DNA from: Schmidtea polychroa
Lineage: Eukaryota
NCBI GenBank assembly: GCA_044892525.1
Contig: CM097885.1
Location: forward strand, 21,392,001-21,456,000
DNA length: 64,000 bases
Reading direction: 5' to 3'
The notes under the pieces were generated by a model. It worked only from the letters and a program-made list of their open reading frames with translations. It did no database searches and was not told the origin of the DNA. Position numbers and translations under genes: made by a program. Shown piece by piece: positions 22,471-60,931 of the stretch (positions are counted from its first letter, which is position 1; the number at the start of each line of letters is the position of its first letter).

Positions 22471-23043
22471 CTAATAATTTTTGTTTTAATTATCGATTAC
22501 ATAATAATTTAATTTGTTTAAATCGTTGATTATTATTATTTTTATTATTATTATTATTATTATTATATACTCCGAGTTTATCCGACAAGATATTCTGTCC
22601 CCCTATGGGTATTGCTAGCAAGGGTACTACTCACACTCAACAAGTCACATGGGTACTGTTCATATTATTATTATTATTATTATTATTATTTATTTTTTTT
22701 TCAAAGATATTTAGTTACATGCTCACTGCAAACTAAAGTAAATATGAACAGTATTATCAAATTAAATAAAAATAATAAAACTTTATAAAAATTTAAATTC
22801 TTTTAATGGCTCAAAACAAAGTCCTAATCCATAGTGACAACATTACTAGTTTTCAATAATAAAACAATTTTTAATATACTTTCTATGTTTAAACACTTAA
22901 GGAATGTTTAATAATATTACACAATATAATGATTTTTATCCATAGAAAGAAATACGAAAACTTTTCATTAATAAAAATCAACACAAATCAATGTTTTTAC
23001 AAAGTTATATTAATTTATCACAGGAAAAAGATATTAAAATCGC

Positions 23044-26520: not shown

Positions 26521-26529
26521 ATCGGTTAT

Positions 26530-36773: not shown

Positions 36774-36842
36774 ATTTATAAAATTCTAAAAATTAGACTG
36801 TCACATTATGAAAATGAATAATATATAAATTTAAAAAATAAA

Positions 36843-39800: not shown

Positions 39801-41318
39801 CTTTCAACACCTAAAGATTCTCCAATAGGTTACTTTGTAGAATGTGACTTATTATATCCAGATGATATAAAATCAGGAACAAGATATTTCCTTTTAGCTC
39901 CTGTAAGAAGAAAGATTAATGTTAACGAACGTTCTGAATGGCAAATCTCACAAGATAAACCTCCAACAATGAAACTTCTTTGTGATCAAACAGATCGAAC
40001 TTATTATCTTTGTCACTATAGACTCCTCCAATTTTATCTTTCACGAGGTATGATATTAAAAAAAGTTCATAGTGTCATAAGATTTAAACAAGCTCCATTC
40101 GTGAAAGTTTTTATAGAAGAAAACATTAGGTGTCGAAACATTGCAAAAAGAGAAGGTAACCTTTTTAAAGATAATAATTATAAACTTTTAAACAATTCAG
40201 TCTTTGGGAAAACAATGGAGAATGTTGATAAATATACTCATATAGAACTTTTAACTAATACTCATAAAGATATTAAGCGTTATAATCGTATGCTAGGAAA
40301 GCCTACATTTAAAAACGCACAAGTATTTTCTGAAAGTCTTACTGCAGTAGAACTAAAGAATTTTGAGAAAACATACAACAAACCAATATTTATAGGGTTT
40401 TCAATTTTAGAACTTTCAAAATTACAAATGTATGAAACATATTATAACATCTTACAACCTATATATGGTTCTAATATATCACTGCATGCAATGGATACAG
40501 ATTCAATGTTTTTAACAATAAGAACTCATGATTTACAAAGAGATATAGCTGAAAATCCTATACTTTCAAATTTAATAAATTCATCTGGAGAACTATTTTC
40601 ATTTAAAGATGAAAAACCTTTTACTCCTATAGAAAATGGGATATTTATTCGTGCTAAACAATATTCATACGAAACATTTACAAATCCTAAATTTGAAACC
40701 CGAGAAATTATATTTAAAACTCCAGAAAAAGAGGAAATTATTTCATTTAAATATCCTATATTCCCTAATGAAGAAAAACCTGTAAAGGATAACAGATGTA
40801 AAGGAATACAGAAATCAGTTGCAAAGAATCTTTCTCATCAAGATTATATAGATACATTAAACCCAGGTCATAAAGATAAAATTGATGAAATACATCAACT
40901 TAAAAGTGAAAACCATGATATTCACTTGATAGAATCTCAAAAAGTATCATTATCAAATTATGATGATAAAAGATTCATCCTAAGTGATTTAAAGACAACT
41001 CTACCTATAGGAAATAATTTAATCCCTATAATAAAAAATCTTGCTAGTTTGAATAAGTTATATGATACAAAGATTACTGATCTTGATATTTATAATGTTG
41101 AAATCATTTATCCCGAGAGAGAAATCGAGAAGCCTTTATATTCTCAAGTTTTTAATCCTATATGTTTAGAACTTAAATATTTTAATACTGAAGGATTATC
41201 AGATAAAGAATTTAAAGATCATAAAAAGGTTCTAAAAATTAAATTCGAAAAGTTTAAAGATCATAAAGAGGTTCTAAAAATTAAATTCGAAAAGTTAACA
41301 TCAGATTCTATCAAATGA
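36843..41318 (+). CDS. Protein-primed DNA polymerase B with N-terminal zinc fingers
   Basis: 1491 aa; C2H2 motifs, NNDNKCFIWSILA, YGDFES, FHNLFGYD, KGIYPY, RGG, DATALYS, KLLNNSVFGK, MDTDS, DDKR. Confidence 0.95.
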   Translation: MKTEYPIKNFFLKMNCNICNKVFKNKTGLISHLKSKAHLLKENNLNDTNSKLCPKCKGRFLHSGYNKHFENCIGKNREIFTCPHCNFSTKLNFYYLEHIKECKNKKQNSDDEECHSEGEPDHVEREKYNWDNFNHIDEFQLKINGPATPVEYINKNKKNIKNSFTEALKNYKPTRYNVIKYKIIIKAKYWRGAEEKTTPLDVEIGIPFKYLFSTKGFDKTIKEIIKAAEAKQEEVENELGDSNLVFNSFQTLVIDYWRGLPPNPKSYIPTPFKSKNVINIQNNDNKCFIWSILAHLHPQESNPQRVSKYKQYENELIFPKGFKHPMKLEDIPEFESLNNLKINIYERVKGKHVNSREIIPIYISDSGTNGNEVQENTREIYLLILEQQNNQHYVLIKNFQAFTSPEDPTSGGGTCKRCLHYSTIKNSMIKHTRFCEKDEPALINMPKDPKMHFKNFSNLLQTVGVLYGDFESINRKQDLVKQYLKIIEKNKLMDSWNSSGEKMKPERMKAFLRKRNKPNSVKKTKQLPSAYKLLFKSNYPELIESREYTFQGISETEVLNHFTKNINDLEHEIFKVLKTKYEINFSIEQLEEYENSSNCWMCKPPFEDQLLEEPPNNETIEEEEQRMFHERQSSNIKVPDHDHLKKENNYRGAAHKNYNLNCHTPKFVPVIFHNLFGYDIHLFIKHLAENAKNSFKVIGLTKEKYKSVEYGKLKFIDSLNFFQMSLDAIAKTLKPEKFKIARKFLEINNIPPEEYPTCLAKGIYPYDYVESFERYNETSLPSQEDFSSQLQKYHITDQEYSRANKMWELFKCKTLGEYTSMYLSLDVYILADCFEEFTKSFVLKPYNYITAPSLAWDTLLYTIWTSNIEESDKIIDLLTNLDMFNQIKTNIRGGVSSVMWNREIKARNAITTSRMLSKTSDPYIKLNNEGLKELLETMKNLLFILYIDATALYSGIMTQYLPMSDFHEIYSEDSSEESLKDLMKEILSTPKDSPIGYFVECDLLYPDDIKSGTRYFLLAPVRRKINVNERSEWQISQDKPPTMKLLCDQTDRTYYLCHYRLLQFYLSRGMILKKVHSVIRFKQAPFVKVFIEENIRCRNIAKREGNLFKDNNYKLLNNSVFGKTMENVDKYTHIELLTNTHKDIKRYNRMLGKPTFKNAQVFSESLTAVELKNFEKTYNKPIFIGFSILELSKLQMYETYYNILQPIYGSNISLHAMDTDSMFLTIRTHDLQRDIAENPILSNLINSSGELFSFKDEKPFTPIENGIFIRAKQYSYETFTNPKFETREIIFKTPEKEEIISFKYPIFPNEEKPVKDNRCKGIQKSVAKNLSHQDYIDTLNPGHKDKIDEIHQLKSENHDIHLIESQKVSLSNYDDKRFILSDLKTTLPIGNNLIPIIKNLASLNKLYDTKITDLDIYNVEIIYPEREIEKPLYSQVFNPICLELKYFNTEGLSDKEFKDHKKVLKIKFEKFKDHKEVLKIKFEKLTSDSIK

Positions 41319-41423
41319 TTTTTTTCTTTTAAAAATGTCAACAATTAATTTAAGAGTGACAACATCAACCTTTTGAAGGGCAATAAATTTTTTTAAATAA
41401 TCATCCATTTTAGTATGAAGTTT

Positions 41424-42023
41424 TTATGTATGATTCTTTAACCACTTCTCTCGTTTAATTTTTTTAGAATATTCATTAGTTATAACATTAGCACTTTTTA
41501 ATCTATTAATATTATTTTTAATATCTTGTATTATTTGATTTGATTTCATTATTTCTTCGTCTGTCAGGATTCCATCTTCTAAAGCTTTCAATTGAAATAA
41601 AAATAATTTTGATATTCCTAATTCTATTGATAAACAAACTTCTCTATATAAACTTTTCTTTTTAGAAGTATAAGATAAAGAAACTATTTCAGTTAAGAAA
41701 CCATCAGCTACTGAAATACTTCCAAGTATTACAGGTGCAATTGTTAAAACTGGTAAAGTTATAGGTAAAATAACTGTTAATATTGCAGATGCAAATCCTA
41801 AAGAATAACCTATAACTTTTAAAACTGTATTCCCTTTATTCCATCTATTTTTAATTTTTTTATAATGTTTTAATAAATCTTGTAAATGTAATGCTTCTGA
41901 TTTAAATTCTTTTACTCTCATAATTTCAAGTTCTGTGAGAGCTGAAGGCTTGGGACCTTTGGAAGAATAATATCCTGATGATCTCAATTCTGGATAAATT
42001 TTTTCTTCTCTTACTTCTTCCAT
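41424..42023 (-). CDS. Small membrane protein with central hydrophobic hairpin, of a type seen in Polintons/adintoviruses
   Basis: Hydrophobic stretch VIGYSLG...VILGSISV followed by KALEDGILTDEE. Confidence 0.6.
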   Translation of the reverse strand: MEEVREEKIYPELRSSGYYSSKGPKPSALTELEIMRVKEFKSEALHLQDLLKHYKKIKNRWNKGNTVLKVIGYSLGFASAILTVILPITLPVLTIAPVILGSISVADGFLTEIVSLSYTSKKKSLYREVCLSIELGISKLFLFQLKALEDGILTDEEIMKSNQIIQDIKNNINRLKSANVITNEYSKKIKREKWLKNHT

Positions 42024-42031
42024 TTTAATAA

Positions 42032-42840
42032 TTAAAAAAATAAGACTTTATTCTTTTGAGCACCATCTGGCACCAATACTCGGATATCAAAAGAAACTCT
42101 TGTTGAGAGAATATCTTTATACAATTCCATCAATGCTTTACGAATTTCATCAACATCAACCTTTTTTTCATAAAATATTAAATCTATATAATCCACAAGT
42201 GTGCTTTTAAAAATAATATTCTTACTTTTAACTTTATGTAGTCCATGTGAATGAGTATTAACATACCAATCTCCGTGTGGTAAATCATAACTAGTCATTA
42301 TAACATCACCCTTTTCAAGCTTACTATTATAATCACATTTCACAAACCATTTCATTCTTTCATTATCATCATCAAACAAAAAGAAATAAGGATCAATAAT
42401 CTTTACAACCATAAAAAAACCCCATTCTTTACTGTTTGTTGTTATTAAACTTGGTTCTATAAAATGTTTATATGTATGGGGTAATAATGTTTTATTCTGT
42501 TCTAATTCAGCAGCTCTTTTTCTAATACTATGTGTGGCGTTAATGTGTGTTCCATGAGACTCTAAATTTGAAATTCTTTTATTAAATGATGTAATCATCT
42601 CATTTATTATATTATATATTGTATTAAATTTAGTATTCATAATTTGTTTAACTTTAGAATTTAATATGCTAGTATTTAACTTTACAACTTGTTCAGTTAA
42701 CAGACTTTGTAACTTGTCAAATTTATCATTAAATCGTTGTTCGATATTATTAAGCTTTGATTCTATTGAATCAATTCTTGTTGTTGTTAAATCAGTATAT
42801 TTTTTATTAACTGCGTCAGAATCATCAGTTGGAACAGATA
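42032..42840 (-). pseudogene. 5'-truncated fibre-like coiled-coil protein
   Basis: The frame stays open upstream of ATG 42640: VPTDDSDAVNKKYTD followed by heptads. Confidence 0.5.
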
Positions 42841-43092
42841 AATCCCAAAAGAATCAAAGTATATAGATTTATTATATATACAAACCCAATGAGATCCTTT
42901 CTCATTTGAATTTTGATAATTGATTATTATATTCTGGGGACTCCGTCTAAGGGGAGTACCTCCAATTTTATATAATTCATCGTTCATTAATATTTTAATT
43001 TTTAAATTTAAATAATCTGCATAATCTTTTAAATCAAAATTTGTTTTTGCATTTATTCCAAATGTTTTTAAAAAATCTAATATTGAAGCCAT
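42840..43092 (-). pseudogene. Adenain-like cysteine protease, N-terminal half
   Basis: IINY..GSHWVCI..IYFDSFG (His and Asp present); the catalytic Gln/Cys segment is absent. Confidence 0.85.
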
Positions 43093-43100
43093 TTTGTATT

Positions 43101-43940
43101 TTATAACTTCGTATACTTATTAAATTTATCTTTTGAAATTATTCCTTGTTTTAACAAATCTTTAGAAATCTTTAAAATATCAGAATCTAAATTATAATGT
43201 CCTGCTTTTTTAGCTGCTAATAGTTTTCTTAATTCAATAAAAAGATTTATAGGGTTGAGGCCTTCTCCTTCAATGATTTGAATTTGAGGGCCTGTTTTAT
43301 CTCTATCTTTATATTTCTTTAAATCTTGAATATGTTTTGCTTTAGGGCTACCATTTATTAATTTTATTAAGTTTAAATATTTATCAATTTCTTCATTCTT
43401 GACACCATCTGGAATATATCCAGAAATTAATCCATGAAAATCATCTGAAAGTTCAATGTCAACACGCTCTCTATTCATAAAAGTATTTGTTGAAATAATC
43501 GATGGATTATTTTCTGAATTTAAATATATATAAAATTTTTGATTATTAATTGTTATTGTTTGAAAACCTCTAGGATCATAACCTATAGTAGGTATAATTG
43601 ATGGAGCTAGTGATGTATTAATTTTAAAATTAATTGGAGTCTTATGAGGTGTTAATCTTGAAAGAAATTCATCTTCTTCTAAATCAATATTATTTCTACG
43701 TTTTTTTCCTACTAATCTTAGTAATTCCTTTTTAGGGGCTTCTATAGCTTTATGTTCGGGGGTTAGAGGAGCTTCTATAGTTTTAAGTCCCTCTATAGCT
43801 TTAATTGTTGGTCCTTGTTGTTGTTGGATTACCTCATTTAATATTATAGATTCAGTTTGTTGAGTTGTATCTTTTTTATTATACTTGTTTTGTTCTGATT
43901 GTAATTTTTTTAAAAGTGCTAATCTTTCTTCATATACCAT
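43101..43940 (-). CDS. Polinton hypothetical protein
   Basis: 279 aa intact ORF, AAAATG start, GEGL...LLAAKKAGH C-terminal motif. Confidence 0.7.
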   Translation of the reverse strand: MVYEERLALLKKLQSEQNKYNKKDTTQQTESIILNEVIQQQQGPTIKAIEGLKTIEAPLTPEHKAIEAPKKELLRLVGKKRRNNIDLEEDEFLSRLTPHKTPINFKINTSLAPSIIPTIGYDPRGFQTITINNQKFYIYLNSENNPSIISTNTFMNRERVDIELSDDFHGLISGYIPDGVKNEEIDKYLNLIKLINGSPKAKHIQDLKKYKDRDKTGPQIQIIEGEGLNPINLFIELRKLLAAKKAGHYNLDSDILKISKDLLKQGIISKDKFNKYTKL

Positions 43941-43962
43941 TTTAATGGTATTAAAAATGGTA

Positions 43963-44520
43963 TCATTGTTCCTTCCAAGGTTTTAAATACAATCCTTTAC
44001 CACTATTCTGTGGAGTTCCTCCAATTTTACAAATACACCCATTCTTTAAAGATTTACATATTTTTTTAAAATCATCTTTATCTTTTGATGATAAAGATTC
44101 AGATGTTGAAATTTGATTTTTTAAAAAATCATTTAAACCTCTGCCTTTATATGGATCAAGATAGAGACCTTTGCCCTGATATGGATTAAGATAGAGACCT
44201 TTTCCTTTAGCTTGCCCTACCTTCATTTTCTCGATTTCAGTTTGTAATTTTTCTTTTTCTAGGTCTGTCTTTTGAGATTCTCTAGCTTTTTGAACTGTAG
44301 TTGCAATTCCTCCAGCTATTCCAGCAGCACCTGATAGTCCAGCAATGATTGCAGGTATTAAAACACCTAATGGAAGAATACCACCTTCTTTAGCCGAAGA
44401 CATACGTTCTTTAACTTGTTCTTTTACATGTTTTCCAATAAAATATTTCTTACCATCAATTACTACTGATTTATTTTTATTTGAATTTATTAATTATTGC
44501 AAAGATTCTTCAGTTGTCAT
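43963..44520 (-). pseudogene. Adenovirus pX-like virion precursor with GxGLYL repeats; TAA at codon 9
   Basis: EGGILPLGVLIPAIIAGL..AGIA; GKGLYL x3; the duplicate starting at 48841 has GAA at this codon. Confidence 0.65.
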
Positions 44521-44535
44521 TTTATAATAAACAAA

Positions 44536-45327
44536 ATGGATATTTGGAAACCAATTTTAAATAGACATAAGAGTAAATTTAATAATAAAGTATTTCCTGA
44601 TAATTTTAGATTATTAATTGTTGGTTCTTCTGGATGTGGAAAGAATGTACTTGTTTTGAGAATGTTACTTGAAGATGATTTTTTAGATTATAATAATTTA
44701 ATCTTTTACTCTACAACCATAAATCAACCAGAATTACAACTTTTGAAATGTGGATTTGAAAATAAATTAACTAAAAAAGCTATAATTGATATTTTTAAAA
44801 ATCAACATAGTAGTCCTGAAGAAGTTTTTCAACCTTGTGATATGGTTGATTGGTATAAGGAAAAGATTTTAGAATCAGATATTAGTAATAAAAATGATTA
44901 CATCTGTGAAGATGAGGGGGAGGGGATTCAGGTTTTATTCTCTAATAAACCTGAAGATGTTTTACATTGTGATTTACTTCCTAAAGATAAAAAGAATCTA
45001 GTTATATTTGATGATGTTGTCAACATGAAAAATCAAGAGATTCAAAAGAGTTACTTTACAAGAGGAAGACATAATAATTGTAATGTTATTTATATATCTC
45101 AAACATATTATGCTTTAGATAAAAACTCTATAAGAAATAATTCCAATTGTTTTATATTTTTTAAATTAGATCGCCGTGATAAGAATATGATTTATAATGA
45201 TTTATTTTCAAATGTTGAACCTGATAAGAATATGTTTGATATGTTTGTTGATAATCATTGGAGAGAAAAATATAATTATATTTATTTGGATAGAGAAGAA
45301 GCTGAAATATGGAAAAGTTTGTTTTAG
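44536..45327 (+). CDS. A32/FtsK-like DNA packaging ATPase
   Basis: Walker A GSSGCGKN, Walker B VIFDD, FTRGRHNN, YISQ, IRNN. Confidence 0.92.
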   Translation: MDIWKPILNRHKSKFNNKVFPDNFRLLIVGSSGCGKNVLVLRMLLEDDFLDYNNLIFYSTTINQPELQLLKCGFENKLTKKAIIDIFKNQHSSPEEVFQPCDMVDWYKEKILESDISNKNDYICEDEGEGIQVLFSNKPEDVLHCDLLPKDKKNLVIFDDVVNMKNQEIQKSYFTRGRHNNCNVIYISQTYYALDKNSIRNNSNCFIFFKLDRRDKNMIYNDLFSNVEPDKNMFDMFVDNHWREKYNYIYLDREEAEIWKSLF

Positions 45328-45338
45328 GGCTTGTCGAC

Positions 45339-46235
45339 TTAAAAATCTGTTTTCTGTAACTCATTATTATAAAATCTACCTAATATTTTTTCATTATTTA
45401 AATCAATGATGCTATATGTTATTGGAGTTGTATAATGTATTTTATTTATAATAAAAATTTCATTTGTCCATTTTGCTGTGAATCCTTTTTCAAATTTATT
45501 TTTGTATTTAAATATTCTTACTCGTTCACCAATTTTAAACTTTGGTTTTTCAATAACATCATTTTCAACAGGATTCATGAGTTCCAAAGGATTCAAGGAA
45601 GCATTTAAAGGTGTTGATTTTATAGAACTATGTACATCATTATTATATTCATTTACAATCTTTTGTAACAATTCATTGTTCCATTTTTGTTTTCCAATAG
45701 CAGTAAAATATTTCCACATTTTATTTTTTAATGTTCTATTTAATCTTTCAACCACAACTGCTTTTCCTTCGTTTTCTGTTGAATATAATTTAATATCATT
45801 TTCATTTAAAAACTTTGTAAAAACTTTGTTATAAAATTCTGTTCCTTTATCACACCATAAATATTTTGGAATTCTTTGATGTTGTTCAAATATATTTTCA
45901 AATGCTTCTGTAATAGAATATCCTGTTTTATTTTCTAAACATCTTGCAAAAGCAAATCTTGTATATAAATCTATTACTGTTAAAATTATTTTATATTTTT
46001 CAGGGTCTGATGATTTGGTTGGCATAAAGACTAAATCTGCAGACCATGTTTGATCTTTTTCATGTACTTGAACTTTTAAATATTTTTTATTTTTTCTAAA
46101 TTCATGGTGTAATTCGTTGGCATATTTTATTTCTGATTCTGTTGGGGTTTGTAAACTAGTCTTGGATATATTCTCGAGGGATCTTTCAATGTCTGCTTGT
46201 TCGAGGATCTTTTTATTAGCAACATCTTTTGCTAT
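45339..46235 (-). CDS. Retroviral-type (rve) integrase, in frame with the upstream PLA2-like ORF
   Basis: ELH, WSADL, VIDLYTR, CDKGTEF, VERLNRTLK, HSSIKSTP, FEKGFTAKWT; no chromodomain. Confidence 0.92.
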   Translation of the reverse strand: MAKDVANKKILEQADIERSLENISKTSLQTPTESEIKYANELHHEFRKNKKYLKVQVHEKDQTWSADLVFMPTKSSDPEKYKIILTVIDLYTRFAFARCLENKTGYSITEAFENIFEQHQRIPKYLWCDKGTEFYNKVFTKFLNENDIKLYSTENEGKAVVVERLNRTLKNKMWKYFTAIGKQKWNNELLQKIVNEYNNDVHSSIKSTPLNASLNPLELMNPVENDVIEKPKFKIGERVRIFKYKNKFEKGFTAKWTNEIFIINKIHYTTPITYSIIDLNNEKILGRFYNNELQKTDF

Positions 46236-46736
46236 TTAGGGAAGTCTTGCATCCATAGGAAGTCCTGCTCCTATGAAAATCTTACCTTTCATTGCTAATT
46301 TAACTAGAGCTCTTTGAATCTTTTCTTGGGTTGATGGATTTTGGATATTATTTAAATCATGTATTAAATTAACATCAGCAACATGTCTATCTCTAAGATC
46401 CTCTGAGTTGTAAGCAATATCATGTTTTAAAGCTGCTTGATCAATTCTATTTATTGGTTCTTCTCCTTGTTTAGGATTATTATTTTCATCTAATCTAATA
46501 TCTAATCTTGTTTCTGGTCCGGTATAGTTGTGTTTAAATAAATGTCTTTCACCTGGATATTTTTCTGTAGTAAAAGGTTTTAATATTGAAGATGTTGTTT
46601 TTGAAGATTGCATGTCACCTCCTGTTCGTGTAATATCGACTCCTATATGTTTTTTAGTTTTTAAATGACTTGCTTTATGATGTCTTGTAACTTGACAATT
46701 ACAACTTTCACATCTCCAATATTTATTTAAAGACAT
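46236..46736 (-). CDS. Zinc finger plus parvovirus-type phospholipase A2-like domain
   Basis: CESCNC..HLKTKKH; HNYTGP...PINRIDQAALKHDIAY...RHVAD. Confidence 0.85.
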   Translation of the reverse strand: MSLNKYWRCESCNCQVTRHHKASHLKTKKHIGVDITRTGGDMQSSKTTSSILKPFTTEKYPGERHLFKHNYTGPETRLDIRLDENNNPKQGEEPINRIDQAALKHDIAYNSEDLRDRHVADVNLIHDLNNIQNPSTQEKIQRALVKLAMKGKIFIGAGLPMDARLP

Positions 46737-46753
46737 TTTAAAATGTTAAAATA

Positions 46754-48046
46754 TTAAGAATCTCCCCTAACATTTTCAATAATTGAAATCTTTCCACCAT
46801 ATAATTTCATTTCTATTTTCTTTTCTTCTAATATTAATGTATATACTTTAGCTTTGAAATTAGAATCCTTTGTTACATGAAGTGTAACATCAACATTATT
46901 TATGGCTAGGCGATCATCTTGGTCTGAAACATTTATACAAAATATAGAATATAAATTTTTGAAATCTTCTAAACTTAATTGCGGTTCAACTTTGAAATCA
47001 TAACATGTTTCAATATAATTTAGATATGGGAATATGTTTTCATTATTTTCAATATTAAATTCCATTCTATTTATTGGATAATAAGAACTATTTAATTGAA
47101 TTTGGATTGTTTTTAAATTATCATCTCCAATCTTTTGAATAAACAAGTTGTTATTTTTTTGGAAAGATGAATCTACTTCTTTGAATCCAATCAAGATATA
47201 TCTTGGTCGGTATGCTAAATTTGCTACCTTTATAGAATATGTTGAACCCTCTGTCATACTAAATTCACTACAGATTCTATTTAAATAATTTACATTTATA
47301 GATTTGTTGGAATTTAATCTTTCAAGGAGTTTGATTTCGGAATGTGGGTTTAATGTCCATTCAGGTATATGTAATTCAAGTGTTGATAATTTTAATTTAG
47401 CTTTTGTATCTGCAGCTCCATAGAACAATCTTTTATCACCTTCTACTCTATTACAAACTAATTCTATAAAAACATTATGAAGTATACGATTATAGTTTTG
47501 AAGGAATCCAAACAAGTGTTTTAATTCAAAATAACCTTCAAATTTTTTAGATTTATAAAGTTCAGCTCTTTTATAATAACCATAATTTATATCTAAACCA
47601 TCTTTATCTAAATCCCCTTTATTAGTGTCAGGAATCCAACCTGTTAATTCCCCATATTCATTTTTATAGTCACAACCAGTTAAAATAAAATTTAACATTG
47701 TAGAATATACTCCTGGATGTAAAACAGTTTCAATTTCTGATGATCCTAGTTTTAATCTCATGTTGGAGAATAAATTTGGAAAGAAATTATTTTCTAGGGT
47801 TATATCTTTGTTTGCTTCAATTTCTAATTCAATTTTATAATATAATTTGGCATTACAAATATCTATTGGGTTTGATGTTTGAAGAGATTGAAAAACTATA
47901 TCACCCCTACGATTTAAGTTTGCAATAGATCCTGAAGTTGGTGAGATTTTAAGTACATCATTTTTCTTGATTTCATGAGTAAATTCTTTATTATAATCAA
48001 GATTTAATTTATTTTTTTCTTGAATTTTAAGATTTATATTATTCAT
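46754..48046 (-). CDS. Probable major capsid protein (double jelly-roll)
   Basis: 430 aa beta-rich ORF with NNFFPNLFS..L.LG, RPRYILIGF and YYP patterns; assigned from size, pattern and context. Confidence 0.7.
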   Translation of the reverse strand: MNNINLKIQEKNKLNLDYNKEFTHEIKKNDVLKISPTSGSIANLNRRGDIVFQSLQTSNPIDICNAKLYYKIELEIEANKDITLENNFFPNLFSNMRLKLGSSEIETVLHPGVYSTMLNFILTGCDYKNEYGELTGWIPDTNKGDLDKDGLDINYGYYKRAELYKSKKFEGYFELKHLFGFLQNYNRILHNVFIELVCNRVEGDKRLFYGAADTKAKLKLSTLELHIPEWTLNPHSEIKLLERLNSNKSINVNYLNRICSEFSMTEGSTYSIKVANLAYRPRYILIGFKEVDSSFQKNNNLFIQKIGDDNLKTIQIQLNSSYYPINRMEFNIENNENIFPYLNYIETCYDFKVEPQLSLEDFKNLYSIFCINVSDQDDRLAINNVDVTLHVTKDSNFKAKVYTLILEEKKIEMKLYGGKISIIENVRGDS

Positions 48047-48073
48047 TTTTATAATAAAAATTTTAAAAATGAC

Positions 48074-48601
48074 AAAAATCCAAACCCAGATAGCGCAGTG
48101 GGCTAGACTGGCACAGTGGTTCAAATAGATAGCGGTTCAAATCATATCTGAGGTTAGTTTTTTTTCAACATAAAATAATATTAAAAATTTGAAAATAATA
48201 TTGTGGGTATCTTAAATTTATATTTTATTTTATTTATTTTTATTTTATTTTATATATTTTATTTTATTTTTTAAACATAAATATGAAAAAAAATTATTGA
48301 AACGGGTGTGATGGTGAACCGGTAATTATCGCCATCAGTCTTTCGAACACACCCCGGATCGATTCTTTAATGTGCACATTTATTTCTCAGTTGTTTTCGG
48401 ACCTCTTTCGGATTCACTTTCGAATTCATTTGTACTTTCGAGCAGCACGCTTAAAACGCCGATGAAATCGTATTCGAGCGAGAAGCGAATAATAAGGTGT
48501 GCTGCTATTATCGAATTGATTCTGATGTATGAGTCTGGCCAGCTTGTATATTGGAAGAGATTCGATAAACGAAAGAGGTTGAATAAAAAATGATCCGGAT
48601 C
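48074..48601. repeat. Internal partial TIR copy (includes Pol III-type unit 48084-48165, + strand)
   Basis: Matches 50148-50676. Confidence 0.9.
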
Positions 48602-50147
48602 TCTAGCTTTTTGAACTGTAGTTGCAATTCCTCCAGCTATTCCAGCAGCACCTGATAGTCCAGCAATGATTGCAGGTATTAAAACACCTAATGGAAGAAT
48701 ACCACCTTCTTTAGCCGAAGACATACGTTCTTTAACTTGTTCTTTTACATGTTTTCCAATAAAATATTTCTTACCATCAATTACTACTGATTTATTTTTA
48801 TTTGAATTTATTAATTCTTGCAAAGATTCTTCAGTTGTCATTTTATAATAAACAAAATGGATATTTGGAAACCAATTTTAAATAGACATAAGAGTAAATT
48901 TAATAATAAAGTATTTCCTGATAATTTTAGATTATTAATTGTTGGTTCTTCTGGATGTGGAAAGAATGTACTTGTTTTGAGAATGTTACTTGAAGATGAT
49001 TTTTTAGATTATAATAATTTAATCTTTTACTCTACAATCATAAATCAACCAGAATTACAACTTTTGAAATGTGGATTTGAAAATAAATTAACTAAAAAAG
49101 CTATAATTGATATTTTTAAAAATCAACATAGTAGTCCTGAAGAAGTTTTTCAACCTTGTGATATGGTTGATTGGTATAAGGAAAAGAATTTAGAATCAGA
49201 TATTAGTAATAAAAATGATTACATCTGTGAAGATGAGGGGAGGGGATTCAGGTTTTATTCTCTAATAAACCTGAAGATGTTTTACATTGTGATTTACTTC
49301 CTAAAGATAAAAAGAATCTAGTTATATTTGATGATGTTGTCAACATGAAAAATCAAGAGATTCAAAAGAGTTACTTTACAAGAGGAAGACATAATAATTG
49401 TAATGTTATTTATATATCTCAAACATATTATGCTTTAGATAAAAACTCTATAAGAAATAATTCCAATTGTTTTATATTTTTTAAATTAGATCGCCGTGAT
49501 AAGAATATGATTTATAATGATTTATTTTCAAATGTTGAACCTGATAAGAATATGTTTGATATGTTTGTTGATAATCATTGGAGAGAAAAATATAATTATA
49601 TTTATTTGGATAGAGAAGAAGCTGAAATATGGAAAAGTTTGTTTTAGGGCTTGTCGACTTAAAAATCTGTTTTCTGTAACTCATTATTATAAAATCTACC
49701 TAATATTTTTTCATTATTTAAATCAATGATGCTATATGTTATTGGAGTTGTATAATGTATTTTATTTATAATAAAAATTTCATTTGTCCATTTTGCTGTG
49801 AATCCTTTTTCAAATTTATTTTTGTATTTAAATATTCTTACTCGTTTGGAAAGAAAGAAATTATTTTCTAGGGTTATATCTTTGTTTGCTTCAATTTCTA
49901 ATTCAATTTTATAATATAATTTGGCATTACAAATATCTATTGGGTTTGATGTTTGAAGAGATTGAAAAACTATATCACCCCTACGATTTAAGTTTGCAAT
50001 AGATCCTGAAGTTGGTGAGATTTTAAGTACATCATTTTTCTTGATTTCATGAGTAAATTCTTTATTATAATCAAGATTTAATTTATTTTTTTCTTGAATT
50101 TTAAGATTTATATTATTCATTTTTATAATAAAAATTTTAAAAATGAC
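48602..50147. repeat. Direct duplication of 44281-45526 joined to 47775-48073
   Basis: Contains a frameshifted ATPase copy (G-run shortened near 49240) and an in-frame capsid-N/integrase-C chimera. Confidence 0.9.
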
Positions 50148-51316
50148 AAAAATCCAAACCCAGATAGCGCAGTGGGCTAGACTGGCACAGTGGTTCAAAT
50201 AGATAGCGGTTCAAATCATATCTGAGGTTAGTTTTTTTTCAACATAAAATAATATTAAAAATTTGAAAATAATATTGTGGGTATCTTAAATTTATATTTT
50301 ATTTTATTTATTTTTATTTTATTTTATATATTTTATTTTATTTTTTAAACATAAATATGAAAAAAAATTATTGAAACGGGTGTGATGGTGAACCGGTAAT
50401 TATCGCCACCAGTCTTTCGAACACACCCCGGATCGATTCTTTAATGTGCACATTTATTTCTCAGTTGTTTTCGGACCTCTTTCGGATTCACTTTCGAATT
50501 CATTTGTACTTTCGAGCAGCACGCTTAAAACGCCGATGAAATCGTATTCGAGCGAGAAGCGAATAATAAGGTGTGCTGCTATTATCGAATTGATTCTGAT
50601 GTATGAGTCTGGCCAGCTTGTATATTGGAAGAGATTCGATAAACGAAAGAGGTTGAATAAAAAAATGATCCGGATCAAAAAAACTGTTGAGAGGACAATG
50701 AAAAAAAAAAAAAAAATACCACTGTCCTCTCAGAGCAGTTTTACTATTTCATAAAATTTTTATTCTTCAAGACATCAAGATTAAGATTTATAAAATTATA
50801 AATTAGTCAAATAGCAACTTGCTAGTTGACATCCTCAAGTAGTGTGTTTATATCCCTAACCAAAATAGCCCTCTAACTTTTTCATAATACCATTTTCTTT
50901 TCTATTCTCTTTATGTTTTTAGTTTGAAGCTTTTGAGTTTGAGGCTTTAAAGATTAAAACAGTTAGAGCCATTAAGGGTGGTTGTTTTCAAAATATAGGG
51001 TTAAAATACTATAAAAGTATAAGTTTTAGGTTGTTTTTCTAATGGTTTAAGCGTAATGGAGGTATGTTTTGTTGGGAGGGCTGTCGCTGTAAGTATTTCC
51101 ATTGGAATATAGGTTAGAATTAGAAATACAAGCAGATCCCTGCTCAAATCCTTTGAAGAATAATTTAAATATTATGGGAAGTGTGGATTAACTTGGAAAT
51201 AAGGGCCGATCCCTGCTTAAAACCTTTGGAAGATAGTTTAAATTTTCATAAATATCAAGGAAAATACCTAGCAACATTTATAAATAGAAAAATAAGGGCG
51301 CATCCCTGCACAAAAT
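50148..51316. repeat. Right TIR
   Basis: Reverse complement of 35610-36773. Confidence 0.92.
50158..50239 (+). ncRNA. tRNA-sized Pol III-type unit in the right TIR
   Basis: ACCCAGA TAGCGCAGTGG ... GGTTCAAATC ATATCTGAGGTT AG TTTTTTTT. Confidence 0.55.
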
Positions 51317-52680: not shown

Positions 52681-53249
52681 CTACTCACGATATTTTCCTC
52701 CTCAGCGATAGCGTCATTCAACCGAATTAAATGCTTTTCTTTATTTGATTTCTTCTAGCAATGATATAGGTGATTTCAATTGTTCTGTGTTAAATGATTG
52801 GATTAAAGTGATGGCGTAGGTTAATTGAGTAACAGTATAAGAAATTTTACATTCATATCGGGATTTCAAACGTCTAGGTTAACATTTTGAATTTACTGTT
52901 CTCCTAAACTGAAAATTTGGAATAAAATAACGATATATGAAATCTGCTGCTCATAATTTAATTTCTAATGATCAAACAAAAATTCTAAATTAAGGTTACT
53001 CCGCTAAATTTTGAATAGAGTTTTCTTCTGGGGTTAAATAATTTAAATTGTTTACCTTACCGTACGATATTTAACCATTGTTTGTCATCCTTCGGGCAAG
53101 TTTCCCTGCGATTTTCTACAACGATAAAATAATACAAGCACCACGAAATTTCCAAGGTTTTTCTAAAGTTTATGAACATTCATTGTGCGACCATTCGGTA
53201 GTCTTTGACTATAACTATCGTTTTTTAGGTTTTTTTGGAATTACGCCTG

Positions 53250-53540
53250 TCCCAGTTGCACCCAACACTACTTTAAAACCATGTTTCTCGTGTGCGGACA
53301 AGAACGCCGCCAACAAAGTTCTTCATGCCGAAATTGGTCGTCTCGAGAAGCAGATAGATTGCCTGGCAGGGACCTGGTTCAACCCTGGCCAGATGAAAGA
53401 ATCTACAAAGAAAACACTTCAATTGGAAAACTGCAGGGATAGCCTGTTAGAGGAAAACGTGGCACAACGCGTGCTCATTCGTGAACAGTCCCAAGCTTTA
53501 CGCCTAATCTATTCCTATTCAGAATTGGCAAAACGTATTG
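53250..53540 (+). pseudogene. Diverged paralogue of the LTR coiled-coil ORF
   Basis: LAGTWFNPGQMK vs LEGTWFSPAEMK and LESTWFSPEDMK. Confidence 0.6.
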
Positions 53541-53562
53541 TGGAGTTGCCCATTGTAGACAA

Positions 53563-53672
53563 GGCCCTTTTGTTATAGGCCCTTTTGTTGGGGGCCTTTA
53601 TGCCGGGGGCCTTTATGTCAGGGGCCTTTATGTCAGGGGCCGTTTTGTCACGGGCCCTTTTGACGGTGTACC
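53563..53672. repeat. ~16-bp tandem array (GGGGCCTTTATGTCA) ending TGTACC; probable DNA-transposon terminus
   Basis: About 7 units directly visible. Confidence 0.6.
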
Positions 53673-53772: not shown

Positions 53773-54012
53773 TGATGGGTTACTGGTGGTCGAATGTTTA
53801 AGTGCTGTTACCAGCGTAACCCAACACACAACATTGTTTTCCTCTTGGTACCCGTTGAGCAATCAACGTTGGTACTGTACCAAGGGGTTGAGTACTCGCA
53901 AAAAGTGAGCGCGTCAAGCACTGTAATTGTCAAGCACTCTATGGGTTCACGGACGCCGATAGAAGGCACGTGTCCGATTTCTTTCGGTCCCTCATCGAGA
54001 TTGTTTTTCCAA
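53773..54012 (+). ncRNA. Conserved structured RNA-like motif, copy B
   Basis: Same stems as copies A and C; GCAA tetraloop. Confidence 0.65.
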
Positions 54013-54140
54013 ACGCCTTTCTACCAGTCATCTTGTTTTAAACAACCGCAAAGTTCAATCTCATACTCATTAGACAACAAGAATCATTTATTTGATCAAT
54101 ACTATATTACAAAGATTGTTTACGCACTCTCGAACGTCTC

Positions 54141-54580
54141 TCAGGATCGTGGATTGGCTTCGGTCTCTTTCAATTTCTCCTGTTCGGCTAGCCAGGCCCT
54201 TTTCAATTTGTCGCGGGTATTCCGCCCTAGCCGTTTGCGTTTCGGCTTGCTTGCCTGGGCTGGTGGGTATATCTGGGCCAACTCTACGGAAAGTGGACGA
54301 ATCTGCTCGCAAAGGGTGTCCTGGACGAATCTTTCGTTCAATTTACTCTCGAGCGAGCGCACTTGTAGCTTCAGCGCTCGGATCTCGAGTTGATCTTGTC
54401 CCGCCTGGGTCTGGAGTTGTGAGATGCGCGTGGTTTGTTTCTTCATCTCAGCCGGACTGAACCAAGTACCTTCGAGTTCTCGGCACTTGATCTTGAGCTT
54501 CTCAACCCGACTTCGAAGGTCTTCGGCTTGCTGCTGGGCCCGTTCGCGGTCCTTACGTAGGTTTTCGAGTAACTGGTACA
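54141..54580 (-). CDS. LTR-encoded coiled-coil protein with a basic patch (exon after acceptor 54582-54581)
   Basis: Clear paralogue of 56650-57119; KPKRKRLGRN. Confidence 0.75.
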
Positions 54581-54985
54581 CTGAATGGAAACAATAATAA
54601 AACTCCATCGCTTGCTGTCATGTGCGTAAAGGTGATTCGCTTGGTGGTGTAAAATTTATAGCTGAAGGCTGAGGAAGGACCCCCCGATCCTGAGGACACC
54701 TCATAAACTATAAGGCCCAAATGCAAATACAGGGAAAAGTAATTTATGATATGAGGAATACACATGATTAAATATAATATTACTAATTTTAATAAAATAC
54801 AAATTCTACAAAATTGTCATGTCGGCTACGAAAGAAGTCAAACACAATCATATAATATTACTAATTTTAATAAAATACGAATTCTACAAAATTGTCACGT
54901 CAGCTACGAAAGAAGTCAAACACAGTCACCATAACATTATGTCCGATGGATCAATTAGTTTGTTCAATCCACCACTGCCGTCGGA

Positions 54986-55338
54986 TTAAGCAGGGTTCTT
55001 CCGGGGCCTCCCTCGTTTCCTCGGAGGTGCCTCGGCCTCTTCCAATTCTTCCAGGGACGCTCCTTCCCTCTCGGCTCTGATTTGTAGATCGATCTTCTTG
55101 AGCCGGGTTTGAGCGGTTTCCACATCCCAGGCCGCCTGATCTCGGGCCTCCTGCAACCGGTTATTCTCCGGTTCCACCTTCACCCATGCCTGGGCATCGG
55201 GCTCTGGGCCGGTCCGGATAATCCGATTGGAACAGTCCAGGTCCCGCCCCTGACACCATCGATGAATATGGTGCCAGATGTACCGCGTGTCCATTGCTTG
55301 TCCTCTTCGCTGCTGGGGTTATCGTTTGGTGGTGCCAT
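54986..55338 (-). pseudogene. LTR-encoded AT-hook protein, 5' frameshift
   Basis: TRYIWH..GPEPDA.AWVK.EP...RKRGRPRK; paralogue of 57330-57695. Confidence 0.7.
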
Positions 55339-56251
55339 GCCTGGAATGTATACGTTAATACCCGTTTAACTCACGTCACTTATCAATGGTCGTCATAATA
55401 AAATACATCGAATTAACTCACACATCAATGACTAAGTTTATTACGATTGTTATAACTACTTTTATCAAAGAAAATAAGTTTTGTTTATAGGTTTTACCAA
55501 TTTAATTTTTAACTACTTAAAATTAAATAACTTTTATAAAAAAAAAAAGTTTTGTTTATAAGTTTTACCAATTTAATTTTACCATTATTATCATCACCCT
55601 GATTTAAGGCCTTTTGTTTGATCACGGTAATCGTTGTTAAGGTTACGTAACAACTCCCACATTTCTTATGTTTAGTCAGCACGGATATACTAAAGGGAAG
55701 AAATTCAGGTATCCAATATTCATATCTTAAGATTTTTCATCGCAACTTAGTGATATCAGTAGCCGACCCCAAATCTCGATCAGTTACTATTACCTGATAA
55801 TATGCTATGGTCCCTCGCATGGACGAAGAGAGCTTGGCGATGCCAAGGAGAAAAGTTGGCGATTGCCTCGATAATTGAGTCGATATTAACTTATAAAGAA
55901 CTCAGTGATCCCGATTAGTAACCTTTGTTTGGAATTTTTTGTTTTGCTTGGATGCTAATATAACGTGAATCTTCGATTTTGGACAAAGTAAAACTTCCTA
56001 GTAAGGAAAAAACTTATTTTAACGAAGATGCTTCGATTTCTTTTACTTTTTGAAATTTCGGGAACTTCCCAGATCGGGATCGGATTGATGAATAAGGTTA
56101 GTATGGATAATGATGATGATAACAATAGTAATTATAGTAAGAGTAATAGCAATGTCAATTATGATAATAGTAATAAATAATAATAATGTTTATCCTGACA
56201 ATACCAATGGTAATAGTAATCACACTAGAATAACGGTAATCATGATAATAT

Positions 56252-56493
56252 TGGTGGGTTACTGGTGGTTGAATGATTGAGTGCTGTTACCAGCGTAACC
56301 CAAAATACAACATTGTTTTTCCGCTTGGTACCCGTTGAGTGATCAACGTTGGTACTGTACCAAGGGTTGAGTACTCGCAAAAAGTGAGCGCATCAAAGCA
56401 CTATAGTTGTCGAGTACTCCGTGGGTTCACGGACTACCGATAGAAGGTGTGTGTCCGATTTCTCAGGTCCCTTTATCAAAATTGTTTTCCCAA
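56252..56493 (+). ncRNA. Conserved structured RNA-like motif, copy C
   Basis: Same stems as copies A and B; GTGA tetraloop. Confidence 0.65.
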
Positions 56494-56649
56494 CCTTATG
56501 CACAAACTCTCATTTCCCAGGCAATCATAAACTGTACTAGTCATTATTTTATCACTACAAAACGTGCAGTATTTTAACAAGGAACATATTATTTGAAGAC
56601 TACCACAATACATAAAAATACTACAAAACACCTAAAACCGAATATAAGT

Positions 56650-57119
56650 TCAAACAGGCCTATTGGTAGGACTGGCCAATTCCGTCGCAGCTGCTAGTGA
56701 CGAATTTGCTTGTCGCTCGTATTCGGCCAGTCTAGCTTTCTTCAATTTTTCCCGAATATTTCGGCCTAACCGCTTTCTTTTGGGTTTCTCTTTCGCGGCC
56801 GGGGGGTATATTGCTGCTAGTTCCACGGTCAACGGCCGGATTTGGTTTATGGCGGCTCCGTGAACTACTTGTTCATTTCGCTCGGTTTCTAGCGCGCGGA
56901 GCTGGAGCTTCAGTGCCCGGATCTCCATCTGATCCTGCGCGGCTTGAGTCTGCAGTTGAAGGACCCGCGCCACCTTCCTTTTCATATCCTCGGGACTAAA
57001 CCAGGTGCTTTCTAGTTCCCGGCACCGTCCCTTGAGCTTGTCTACTCGTATGCGGAGCTCCTCGGACTGTTTTTGAGCTTCTGCCCTATCTCTTCGCAGA
57101 TTTTCCAATAGTTTGAACA
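56650..57119 (-). CDS. LTR-encoded coiled-coil protein (exon after acceptor 57121-57120)
   Basis: Open frame conserved with copy B despite nucleotide divergence. Confidence 0.75.
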
Positions 57120-57329
57120 CTAGATAAATTCAACGATTATATTCTTGCAGCATACTATTCATTCAATTATAAAATAAAATCAATATTATAAATAAACATA
57201 GTTTCGGAGGTTAAGCACGCAATACACAAGATGATTTATTAAAAGGACTGAAATAATTATCACTAAAATCAAAGTTTAATAAAGTCACAACTGAATGATA
57301 ATTTGCAAAAACAAAATTTCGACGATAAG

Positions 57330-57695
57330 TCAGTTCAGTCGCTTGCGAGGCCTTCCCCTCTTCCGCGGGGTTGCCTCGGCCTCTTCTAGGTCCTCCACGG
57401 TTTTTCCCTCCTTTTCTGCTTGGATTTGTAGCTCGATCTTCTTGAGCCGCATCTGAGCTGCTTCTACCTCGATGGCCGCTCGGTCGCGGGCCTCTTGCAA
57501 AAAATCGTTTGTGGGCTCTGTTTTTACCCACGCCGGAGCGTCCGGCTCCGGCCCACTCCTGATTACTGGGCCAAAGTTGTCGAGGTCCAAACCCCGATTC
57601 CAATCATGGATACGGTGCCATATGTACCGTGTACGGAGTCTGGTAAGCATCTGTCGGTCGGCTTCTTCGTGGCTATCGCTGTCAGAGTAGGACAT
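57330..57695 (-). CDS. LTR-encoded small AT-hook protein
   Basis: 121 aa; C-terminal PRKRGRPRK; conserved with copy B. Confidence 0.78.
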   Translation of the reverse strand: MSYSDSDSHEEADRQMLTRLRTRYIWHRIHDWNRGLDLDNFGPVIRSGPEPDAPAWVKTEPTNDFLQEARDRAAIEVEAAQMRLKKIELQIQAEKEGKTVEDLEEAEATPRKRGRPRKRLN

Positions 57696-58214
57696 TTCTA
57701 CAAAATAATAATCAAGCCCCTCTATACTGATTGAGATACGACGTCAACCACAAGATTTTGTTGACCCTTTTTCCCTTTTAAAAAAAAAATATTTTATTTT
57801 TAAGACTAACATCTATAAGCTTAGGAGTAGTGGAATAAGGTTTCCTACTTTATCAAAACAAACACACAAAAAAAAATTTTCGTCAAAATTCGTTTGTTTA
57901 AATTAATCATTTCCATTCAAAATTTTGTTTACCACTGAGTAGTAATTTTAATTACTATTTATAAATTTTAATTTACATGTTAATAAAATGTGAATTTTTT
58001 CCTTTTTGATCGTCATTTTTAGGCCACTAAATTCGGGCACGCTGGGGCGACAGGTACTAGCAACGAACTAAGCTCTTCGTCTGCTTACCTTTCCTTCGGT
58101 TGTGCTCGTTATGAGTGGTTTGCTCTGCATACAAGTAATTTATTTAATTTGCTAATTTCTAAATTTCCAGGTGATCGATATCGGATTGGGATATCGATTT
58201 TTTTGTAGTTAACT

Positions 58215-58560
58215 GTAATAATACCAATAATAATAACAATGAAATAACGATACTAATAATAATAATAATAATGACAATAATAATACTAATAATAGCAATG
58301 ATAGTAATAATAATAAGAATAATAATAGATTTTAATAATGGTAATAATAATAATACTAATAATAGTAATAACAAGAATAATAATAAATTTTTATAATGGT
58401 ACTGATAATGATGATAATAATAATAATGCTAATTATGATATTCATAATAATGATAATAATGATATAATAATAATAAGAATAATAATACTAATAGTAATGA
58501 TAATGTTGATACTGCTAATAGTAATAACAAGGGAAATGATCAGGATTATGATGACTATAA
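58215..58560. repeat. Degenerate (AAT)n microsatellite
   Basis: Directly visible. Confidence 0.9.
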
Positions 58561-59844
58561 TTTTATAATCCCATGTTTTAGAATTACAAATTCATGTTTT
58601 ATAATTTACACTTTGATAATTTTCGATTTATAATTTAAAATTTTTCCATTTAGGGATTTACAACCTTGTAATTTATAATTATAATTTCATATTTTGAAAT
58701 TTATACATTCATATTTTATAAGTTGTAATTGCTTAACTTATAATTTATAAGTTTATAATCTAAAATTTATACTTTTGTAATTCGTATTTTCATACTTTAT
58801 ATTTGAAATTTTTAGTCGACGGAATATACTTCTTACAACTTCCTTTCTATGATCAACATTGTTTTCCGCAGTACTTACAAATTTCCTGGTCCTATTTGTG
58901 GATTAAACTTCAGGGTTCTAGCGCGTCTATCGCCTATCTGTAACCAATCCTAAGTTGATTTTTATACGAAAAATTGTTTACTACTATCTCTGATCAGACT
59001 TTCTCCATTAACAATTTACATTTTCAGGATCGACGTGATTTGTACCTAGCTATCGTAATTATTTATAACTTATAGTTTTATAGTTAACAACAAGAGTATT
59101 ACAACTAAGAGCCTACACATTTACAAACCTTTTAAAGTGGGAACTAGATTTAAAATGTCTATCTTTACTCGGAATCAGTATCCCTAGATCAAGTTATACC
59201 TGTACGTATGCCGAATATCTCTCTTATTTCTATTACTTTATCAAAGATCCTTACTACAAAATCTAGTTCGGCATATGTCTAAGTATAATTGAAATTACCA
59301 TTATGAATCAACGAGCTACATTAATGTGAGTGTAGAATTGTGTAATTTTAGGTACGAGCTCTACTCAAATTAGAACCTTAGTGTAGAGTTATTGTTCAGG
59401 ATTTTAAGTGTTGAGTTTAATTGTATATTACGCAATGAGTCGGGAAGAATATTGCTTCCATGGCCCCACTGTGACCACGTCCACAAACCTTAGTGTTGTG
59501 TGCTAAGTCAACCATTTACGGCTGACCTTAAATAAATACGAAGAGTCAGGCGGAGGGTTTCCTCGACCTAACTCCATGGCAGGACCATGAAGTAGTTCGA
59601 CCTCCGGCTGACCCGAACAAAAAGAAATCATATAATAAATATCACTATAATAATGATAATGCGTGTCTGCATGTCCTGTTAATAACGATTTTAATAAATT
59701 GGATGCAGGACTGAACAACGACGCAGGAATACCAGTACGCCGTTGATCACTCATACATCGCAAAAAAAAAATTTTAAGCAAAAATAAATTTAAAATACCA
59801 TCTATATAATTAAACAATTAATATACAAATAAAGATCAATGCTT

Positions 59845-59922
59845 ACTATCGATTTTGGAAATTTCGTCACAAAAATTTGGCATAAAAGTGATTATTGTGA
59901 CTGAAACGTGTCAGTATATATA
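59845..59922 (-). promoter_or_regulatory. Putative LTR TATA box, short leader exon and splice donor
   Basis: Minus strand TATATATA...TCAGTC...GATA|GTAAGC; the homologous site in the solo LTR (about 17505-17620) has TATATAAA and GTAAGTAAG. Confidence 0.5.
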
Positions 59923-60931
59923 CCTATTTAGTACACGTGTATGTATTGATGCATTAAAACAAACTCGAATTCTTTTTATTCCAGAATTTTCTATTTTACG
60001 ATTTTGCTATTTTTAATGGCAATTTTTGTGCCATAATTTTTGTTTTTATTTTTATATTTTTATTTTTTAATTATTTTTCATTAATTTTACGTCCATGATG
60101 GATTTGGAACGGTTCCAGAACATTCTATTTTACTTTTAATTTAATTTTTATTTTAACTGATGTTTTTATGAATTCTTTTTGAGATTTTTTATTTTTAATA
60201 CTAATTTATTTATTTTCCTTAACTTTTGTTGTTCTAGATAACTCTTGTGATGGTCATCGCCATTTTTATAGAATGTTCTGGGTTTTTCTGGAATGTTTTA
60301 CTGTTTTTATCGTCTTTTAAGTTATTCGAGTCTGTTTTTTGTAACTCTGTGTTTATTTGGTTATTTTTGAGTTAGATTTTTGCATCACTTCTTGCTTTTG
60401 TATAATTTTGTTTAATTTCTTTGTTTATGTTTTTGTTGCTTTCTCCTTTAGTTAATATTGTTTATTTGGTGTAGGTTTTAATATTTAACTATACTTGGTG
60501 CTTTTTTACTTGCTGTGTACCTACGCGTTTCAGTCACAATTAGTATTTTGGGTCTAGAAATCAGTTCTAGCCCAACATAAACCACTCGGGGGCCCATAAA
60601 ATTGCGACCCGCAATTTAAATCATAAGATGAAGAAAATTATTTTCAGAATACTTGCACTATATTACAAGTGCCTACATGCAAATTGGGTCCACGAGCTAC
60701 AGGGTCGTGACCTCAATACCCACATACATAAAAAGGCTACTATTATACTACATTCTACGGATGGGTTGAAAGATGAAGAAAAAGAACGACCGAGGTCGGT
60801 CCACACAAAAATAAAATTATCATGCTCAAGAATCAATGTTATTAGTCACAATCAGTCTCAGTCTTTGAAATCATGATTGTTTGATAATGTTTTATAATGT
60901 CATGAAATGTTTATACTGTCGTGATGTCACA

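Follow-up and report, generated by a model that had tools for sequence, protein, structure and literature searches.

Long terminal repeats (LTRs) are usually regarded as control regions without coding function, and a solo LTR as the dead relic of an element. In retroviruses, the sag gene of mouse mammary tumour virus (MMTV) and the nef gene of human immunodeficiency virus (HIV) lie in U3, the unique 3′ region of the LTR, upstream of the main TATA box. Start codons completed by splicing have been described for env genes; in the accessible parts of the two reports, that of Drosophila gypsy is split as AT|G (PMC2585583), and env of insect endogenous retroviruses is spliced either to a short peptide or to AU (bioRxiv 2023.08.03.551782). 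The planarian Burro/GYPSM1 elements, as the accessible text describes them (PMC6431247), are more than 30 kb long and have an internal region of about 25 kb, with one huge open reading frame (ORF) for Gag, MATH, in-frame env, protease, reverse transcriptase (RT), RNase H, integrase and ankyrin, and accessory BIR, RING and TRAF ORFs. Here, we analyze a stretch of 64,000 nucleotides from Schmidtea polychroa (GCA_044892525.1, contig CM097885.1, positions 21,392,001 to 21,456,000), referred to below as the window. It contains the 3′ LTR (LTR A) of a giant Burro-type Ty3/gypsy element (element A) and part of a diverged solo LTR (LTR B), and each of these LTRs has two ORFs, for a coiled-coil/basic protein and for an AT-hook protein. 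We consider it likely that each LTR carries two selected coding exons behind a TATA box and a short exon 1, with the splicing of the coiled-coil exon documented by an intron-less genomic copy and that of the AT-hook exon predicted, and that the encoded proteins are nuclear regulators of the element.

Judged by its length, layout and domain set, element A appears to match the Burro/GYPSM1 type. It is longer than 30 kb, with about 25 kb between the LTRs, and its size, polyprotein layout and accessory ORFs (BIR, RING and TRAF) are as in Burro/GYPSM1. The internal region has one 4193-codon frame, a single polyprotein, and several accessory ORFs, and the domains found with Pfam are a Gag zinc knuckle, MATH, a viral fusion glycoprotein, protease, RT, RNase H, integrase, ankyrin, TRAF, BIR and RING. 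In the comparison with the same genome, the partner of LTR A, also 4326 bp long, lies 29.85 kb away. LTR A is bounded by TG...CA and by the target-site duplication (TSD) ATAT; a polypurine-type tract precedes it, and a primer-site-like sequence, which we take to be of the proline type (tRNA-Pro), follows its 5′ partner. The ORF region has 40 matches at 99-100% in its own genome, mostly as pairs about 30 kb apart. LTR B was split by the insertion of element A, and its 5′ part, which has a TATA box, exon 1 and a donor with the exon ending in A, lies outside the window, beyond element A (locus L024). The preliminary description had correctly called both repeats LTRs, but the 5′ end of LTR A is at 60577 and not at 59922.

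Each part of this arrangement has a precedent: the family of the element is known, retroviruses have ORFs in their LTRs, and start codons made by splicing have been described. New in this work are the genomic evidence for the splice junction and the contrast with a distant sister family, called family D. As here, env of the gypsy/springer subclade has its start completed by splicing, sister clades using a short coding exon; in gypsy env, however, the split is AT|G and the gene lies in the internal region, whereas the Burro LTR cassette has A|TG, with the donor, the intron, two acceptors and both genes inside the LTR (accessible parts of the reports cited above). The analogy with nef and sag drawn in the preliminary description holds for the presence, in or overlapping the LTR, of coding sequence that is, or here would be, expressed from spliced RNA. 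It is otherwise loose: those genes lie in U3, the ORFs here lie downstream of the LTR's own TATA box, and no sequence or fold likeness was found. The accessible text on Burro/GYPSM1 (PMC6431247) describes no genes or introns inside the LTRs, although the original description, Grohme et al. 2018, may mention them. That paper aside, a conserved intron-containing two-gene unit wholly inside a Ty3/gypsy LTR was not found in the literature searched, and the accessible parts of PMC8532177, PMC11410931 and PMC13524379 make no mention of LTR-encoded spliced genes.

Both LTR ORFs are real protein-coding genes under purifying selection. Between the two window copies the synonymous sites are saturated, and the proteins are still 61-64% alike. 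The proportions of nonsynonymous and synonymous differences (pN/pS) are 0.24/0.88 for the coiled-coil ORF (140 codons) and 0.20/0.75 for the AT-hook ORF (100 codons), and the identities at codon positions 1/2/3 are 97/112/47 of 140 and 77/77/46 of 100, respectively. Within the related family C, the ratio of nonsynonymous to synonymous rates (dN/dS) is 0.14-0.30 for four coiled-coil pairs and 0.18-0.24 for three AT-hook pairs; coiled-coil rows with locus L053 were dropped because a neighbouring second copy had been picked there. The comparison between copies that had been suggested as a check gives values well below 1 for both ORFs, and no internal stops occur in the best 150 matches of each family A protein. 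Alignable between LTRs A and B are exon 1, both ORFs, one intronic block and the terminal block, while most of the intron sequence is not. Profile searches found no copies of either ORF in the internal region of the element.

The coiled-coil homology begins at AG|TG in both window copies, at 57120 and 54581, and the first in-frame ATG comes about 45 codons later in each. The donor exon ends in A at 59847, and the intron opens with GTAAGC at 59846. The preliminary description had proposed from these features that A and TG are joined into a start codon by cis-splicing from the TATA-proximal donor, and this is now well supported by an intron-less genomic element, by a constant A at the donor −1 position and by the contrast with family D. 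We parsed 66 loci from the LTR families with the cassette, called A, B and C. In 65 of them the coiled-coil exon starts at AG|TG, and in the 66th (L172) exon 1 is joined straight to TG. The intron-less element is a full-length member of family B (G000:C1, 78.92-78.95 Mb) with the TSD GTCA, and its LTRs, 1561 bp each with 1 mismatch, both have the join between exon 1 and the coiled-coil exon that gives ATG. As the join is present in both LTRs and GTCA is duplicated, the element must have been copied from RNA without the intron. In the five closest unspliced relatives that were checked, 58-59 of the 60 nt flanking the join in exon 1 and 50-59 of the 60 nt flanking it in exon 2 are identical, and a GT...AG intron of 2133-4633 nt sits at exactly the join point. 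The ATG is accordingly joined exactly at GT-AG boundaries, in one element, in both LTRs and in family B only. A simple deletion through the shared TAGT was also considered, but it would leave a G that is missing from the intron-less junction.

The intron loss is precise and rare. With genome-wide patterns, the base before the coiled-coil exon start is G at 201 (A), 124 (B) and 251 (C) places, and another base at 0, 2 and 0, respectively; at least 576 LTR copies thus retain the exon boundary of a gene under selection. On the donor side, the −1 base is A in all 37 exon 1 haplotypes (50 loci), and the −2 base varies (T18/A12/C6/G1); the usual base at −1 is G. The other 16 loci have no exon 1 entry, because it is outside the retrieved stretch, because the motif or the ATG is missing, or because the copy is the intron-less one. 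Family D, with elements of about 26 kb, has a distant coiled-coil homolog (E 7e-9 to 3e-8), and no AT-hook ORF was detected in it by profile search. Its ATG lies wholly behind the acceptor (YAG|ATG), the donor is CAG|GTAA in 6/6 copies parsed, and exon 1 is without an ATG.

For the AT-hook exon, splicing from exon 1 is predicted from the position of the acceptor. The minus-strand coordinates given earlier are correct: the acceptor G at 57698 is followed by AA and the ATG at 57695, and that at 55341 by GC and the ATG at 55338. The spacing of 2 nt between acceptor and ATG is not a rule, however. Among the 54 of 66 loci in which it was scored, it is 2 nt in 5/5 A, 16/16 C and 17/33 B loci, and 1 nt in the other 16 B loci. 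Similarly, the ATG behind 55341 had been taken as the AT-hook start, which is in frame in family relatives, but in window copy B it opens another frame that stops before the AT-hook. The hook itself is single, with a nearly invariant RGRP core flanked by basic residues, and Pfam PF02178 finds it in 6/19 members with weak scores (E up to 0.1). A loose pattern for the AT-hook junction gave 62 matches, of which 20 were checked and none was homologous; further patterns gave no true intron-less copy, and their single match is a decayed copy with a point mutation at its acceptor. Taking both exons together, expression of the ORFs by alternative splicing is very probable.

It should be noted that several points weigh against the reading given above. 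The coiled-coil junction rests on one insertion event (2/578 pattern matches), in family B and not in the window's family A, and the genome-wide pattern search found no intron-less copies for the coiled-coil junction of family A or C. Genome pattern searches likewise found no intron-less copy for the AT-hook junction. The 37 exon 1 haplotypes are kin by descent and represent about three deep lineages, and the intron of LTR A has extra donor-like sites at 58088, 58836, 58878 and 59254. Since exon 1 of family A has an in-frame ATG, A+TG is perhaps an internal methionine there; this family is also without a canonical poly(A) hexamer, and the transcription start and the poly(A) site are predicted only. 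Finally, no homolog or fold match was found that points to a function, including likeness to regulators of the Tat, Rev, Sag or Nef type. The positions of all features are collected in Table 1.

Table 1. Positions in the window of the two LTRs, their exons and their signals.
Feature	Positions	Strand	Remarks
LTR A	56252..60577	-	3′ LTR, 4326 bp, of a ~34-kb Burro-type Ty3/gypsy element reaching past the window; 99.95% identical partner; TG..CA ends; TSD ATAT
TATA-like box TATATATA	59915..59922	-	conserved in families A, B and C; putative promoter
Exon 1	59847..59889	-	last base A, at 59847; intron-less element fixes the 3′ end; 5′ end predicted
5′ splice donor GTAAGC	59841..59846	-	equivalent donor in 50/66 loci parsed
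Conserved intronic block	59380..59640	-	hairpin predicted; common to families A and B; two-sided change in 3/47 pairs, weak covariation
AT-hook exon, LTR A	57330..57697	-	acceptor 57698, ATG 57695; 121 aa; C-terminal RKRGRPRK; predicted junction
Coiled-coil/basic exon, LTR A	56650..57119	-	TG directly behind acceptor 57120; 155 codons after the split ATG; junction shown in a family B genomic copy
Terminal U5-like block, LTR A	56252..56493	-	87% identity to copy B; stable fold, z -3.76
Solo LTR B, 3′ part	53773..56247	-	TSD CGTG at both outer ends
AT-hook exon, LTR B	54986..55340	-	acceptor-proximal ATG 55338 out of frame with the conserved core
Coiled-coil/basic exon, LTR B	54141..54580	-	TG directly behind acceptor 54581
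AATAAA, LTR B	54087..54092	-	candidate poly(A) signal, ~50 nt past the coiled-coil stop

Both proteins are helical in the AlphaFold models, with predicted local distance difference test (pLDDT) values of 83 and 69 and low predicted template modelling (pTM) scores, and both have basic tails. No homologs were found among 5.8 billion proteins at near lengths. A profile search, in which the coiled-coil profile was not included, gave 4 matches, and the two examined are repeat or multi-hook proteins; an Atlas search gave weak matches only, Foldseek against viral models gave no match at E 0.001, and an Rfam search gave none. The two LTR proteins would represent two families that are new, no relatives having been found beyond this genome.

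Concerning their function, we regard a regulatory role on the element as an evenly balanced question. In such a role, the coiled-coil/basic protein would be the best candidate for part of a switch between spliced and full-length RNA, and binding to the AT-rich promoter region would most likely fall to the AT-hook protein. This proposal resembles the Tat/Rev-type regulators, which are small basic proteins made from short spliced RNAs of elements that also need unspliced RNA. Those regulators are retroviral, however, and have no homology to the LTR proteins; the host here is a Ty3/gypsy element. A Rev/Tat-like switch in particular seems doubtful. The same tentative standing has the broader proposal that the Burro LTRs are self-contained regulatory genes, with a multi-kb R (repeat) region containing an intron, a Tat-like AT-hook protein, a Rev-like coiled-coil protein translatable only after splicing, and a feedback switch between spliced and full-length RNA. 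If this proposal were true, hundreds of solo LTRs would supply regulators in trans, and the regulation of complex retroviruses would have been independently invented in a Ty3/gypsy lineage. The alternative that the proteins are structural or host-directed, acting for example in particle assembly, in integration targeting to AT-rich DNA or in anti-silencing, and do not regulate the RNA of the element, is a serious one, though we lean away from it. It would fit the purely helical models without a fold match and the many host-directed domains of the element, whereas the basic tails of both proteins, which resemble nuclear localization signals, and the placement of the genes on what would be the shortest and earliest possible transcript speak against it.

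The next question is which ATG starts translation. The start of exon 1 is predicted at an initiator-like site 33 nt past the TATA box, and a conserved ATG follows about 6-12 nt past this predicted cap; in LTR A it is at 59883, in frame with both downstream exons. Exon 1 could hence be a short coding exon, from which a peptide of 12-14 residues is spliced in phase 1 onto either downstream exon, so that A+TG is an internal methionine and serves as the start in family B alone. In line with this, 2/2 A and 10/13 C haplotypes have an open, in-frame ATG in exon 1, with lengths of 37, 40 and 43 nt, and the phase of the AT-hook spacer is constant in A and C and drifts in B, where most haplotypes have this ATG out of frame. 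The arrangement is also known from env of ZAM and Beagle, according to the accessible text of bioRxiv 2023.08.03.551782. We nevertheless find it rather unlikely. Only 3/22 haplotypes of family B have an open, in-frame ATG in exon 1, and the junction ATG is the only possible start in the other 19. One B element of recent insertion (LTR pair 99.8%) has a stop behind its exon 1 ATG, which leaves A+TG as the only way to open the frame. The leader peptide is moreover free to vary in sequence, its ATG is very close to the predicted cap, and the junction methionine is invariant, which would be unneeded for an internal residue; the internal ORFs of element A sit behind acceptor-like AGs at spacers of 0, 1 and 3, which are other phases. 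We therefore prefer the splice-made ATG as the start that would be common to the three families, with the cap-proximal ATG adding an optional extension of 12-14 residues in A and C. In family A, the junction ATG may then be a second start behind a 12-residue leader.

The order of TATA box, exon 1, intron, two acceptors, two ORFs, AATAAA and folding block suggests a layout of U3, a long R and U5 (the unique 5′ region). Transcription would begin about 690 nt into the LTR, and R would be exceptionally long, at 3-4.5 kb; it would include the intron as well as both ORFs and end at the poly(A) signal past the coiled-coil stop. Two short mRNAs would arise from a single donor used with two acceptors, and LTR exon 1 may also be a common leader for the whole element. 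Each LTR has a promoter-like box and the exons, in agreement with the earlier suggestion that even solo LTRs could be expressed, and the cassette RNAs could come from 5′, 3′ and solo LTRs alike. AATAAA follows the last ORF in families B and C (4/4 B, 3/4 C and 0/2 A copies examined). The genomic RNA would have to keep the intron, which is present in nearly all copies, and to escape 3′-end formation at the 5′ poly(A) signal. Splicing or 3′-end formation would hence have to be controlled, by a switch between the short spliced LTR RNA and the full-length RNA. The LTR passes through reverse transcription with its 2-5 kb intron intact, which points to regulated intron retention in a retrotransposon. 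As for the conserved intronic block, it was undetected in family C; it could serve in packaging or retention, as a signal lost from spliced RNA.

We have also considered a start of the genomic RNA close to the end of the LTR on its 3′ side, with the cassette in U3 and the TATA box as an internal promoter for accessory mRNAs. MMTV sag and foamy viruses have such internal promoters. This layout would avoid a strong-stop DNA of 3.6 kb, and the intron-less element is equally well explained by splicing at the 3′ end of the genomic RNA. However, no conserved TATA box was seen past the coiled-coil ORF in the ten 3′ regions examined, and AATAAA precedes the conserved terminal block, as expected for R followed by U5; we thus judge this layout to be unlikely. 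It is very improbable that the acceptors serve spliced-leader trans-splicing, in spite of flatworm leaders that end in ATG (accessible text of PMC12582326), or that translation starts at a near-cognate GTG on unspliced RNA, in spite of a GTG in frame in all copies, with the donor incidental in either case, since a leader ATG on the coiled-coil acceptor reads the wrong frame, with a stop after 25 codons in A and 45 in B, and since both scenarios leave the constant donor −1 A, the family D contrast and the intron-less copy unexplained.

We compared assembled contigs of four runs, three of them guessed to be RNA, with LTR A. Neither predicted junction was among the 15 of 27 joints seen, and such contigs cannot show absence. 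One X1 contig stops aligning at 57121 and runs on for 484 nt, which is too long for exon 1, so it more likely represents an unspliced relative. X6 contigs pile up at 60185-60343 of the window and carry T-tails at 60185, next to which the genome has an A-run and an AATAAA; either an early poly(A) site in U3 or internal priming could account for this. The exact junctions given here can be tested in existing planarian RNA data. According to PMC8532177, the level of BURRO1 RNA goes up when piwi is knocked down.

Some further observations concern the element and its LTRs. In the internal region of element A (L021, L023), four of the eight accessory ORFs (RING, TRAF, BIR and a 533-codon ORF) start 0-3 nt past TAG, compared with 18/239 ATGs on that strand of L021. 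In family D (L162, L163), the first exon, just past the TATA box, is repeated shortly downstream of the donor. In locus L189, the stretch from the TATA box to exon 1 is repeated. A 399-bp tandem duplication covers the TATA region of solo LTR B (L024, 4403-5215), and in L061 the start of an LTR is nested within an LTR. In the window, a decayed coiled-coil ORF of the family D type adjoins solo LTR B (53075-53578, plus strand), and an isolated terminal block of a related LTR is found at 12530-12787.

Outside these LTRs, positions 35610-51316 of the window hold a Polinton/Maverick-type element with inverted ends of about 1.25 kb and internal duplications, which encodes a protein-primed polymerase, an integrase, an A32 ATPase, a jelly-roll capsid protein and a phospholipase A2-like ORF. 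A large inverted repeat at 21574-32184 contains two back-to-back protein-primed polymerase ORFs (23044-25797 and 28456-30732). In locus L024, there is an intron-less frame of 586 codons on the minus strand (8222-9979), which by its motif resembles Hsp70.

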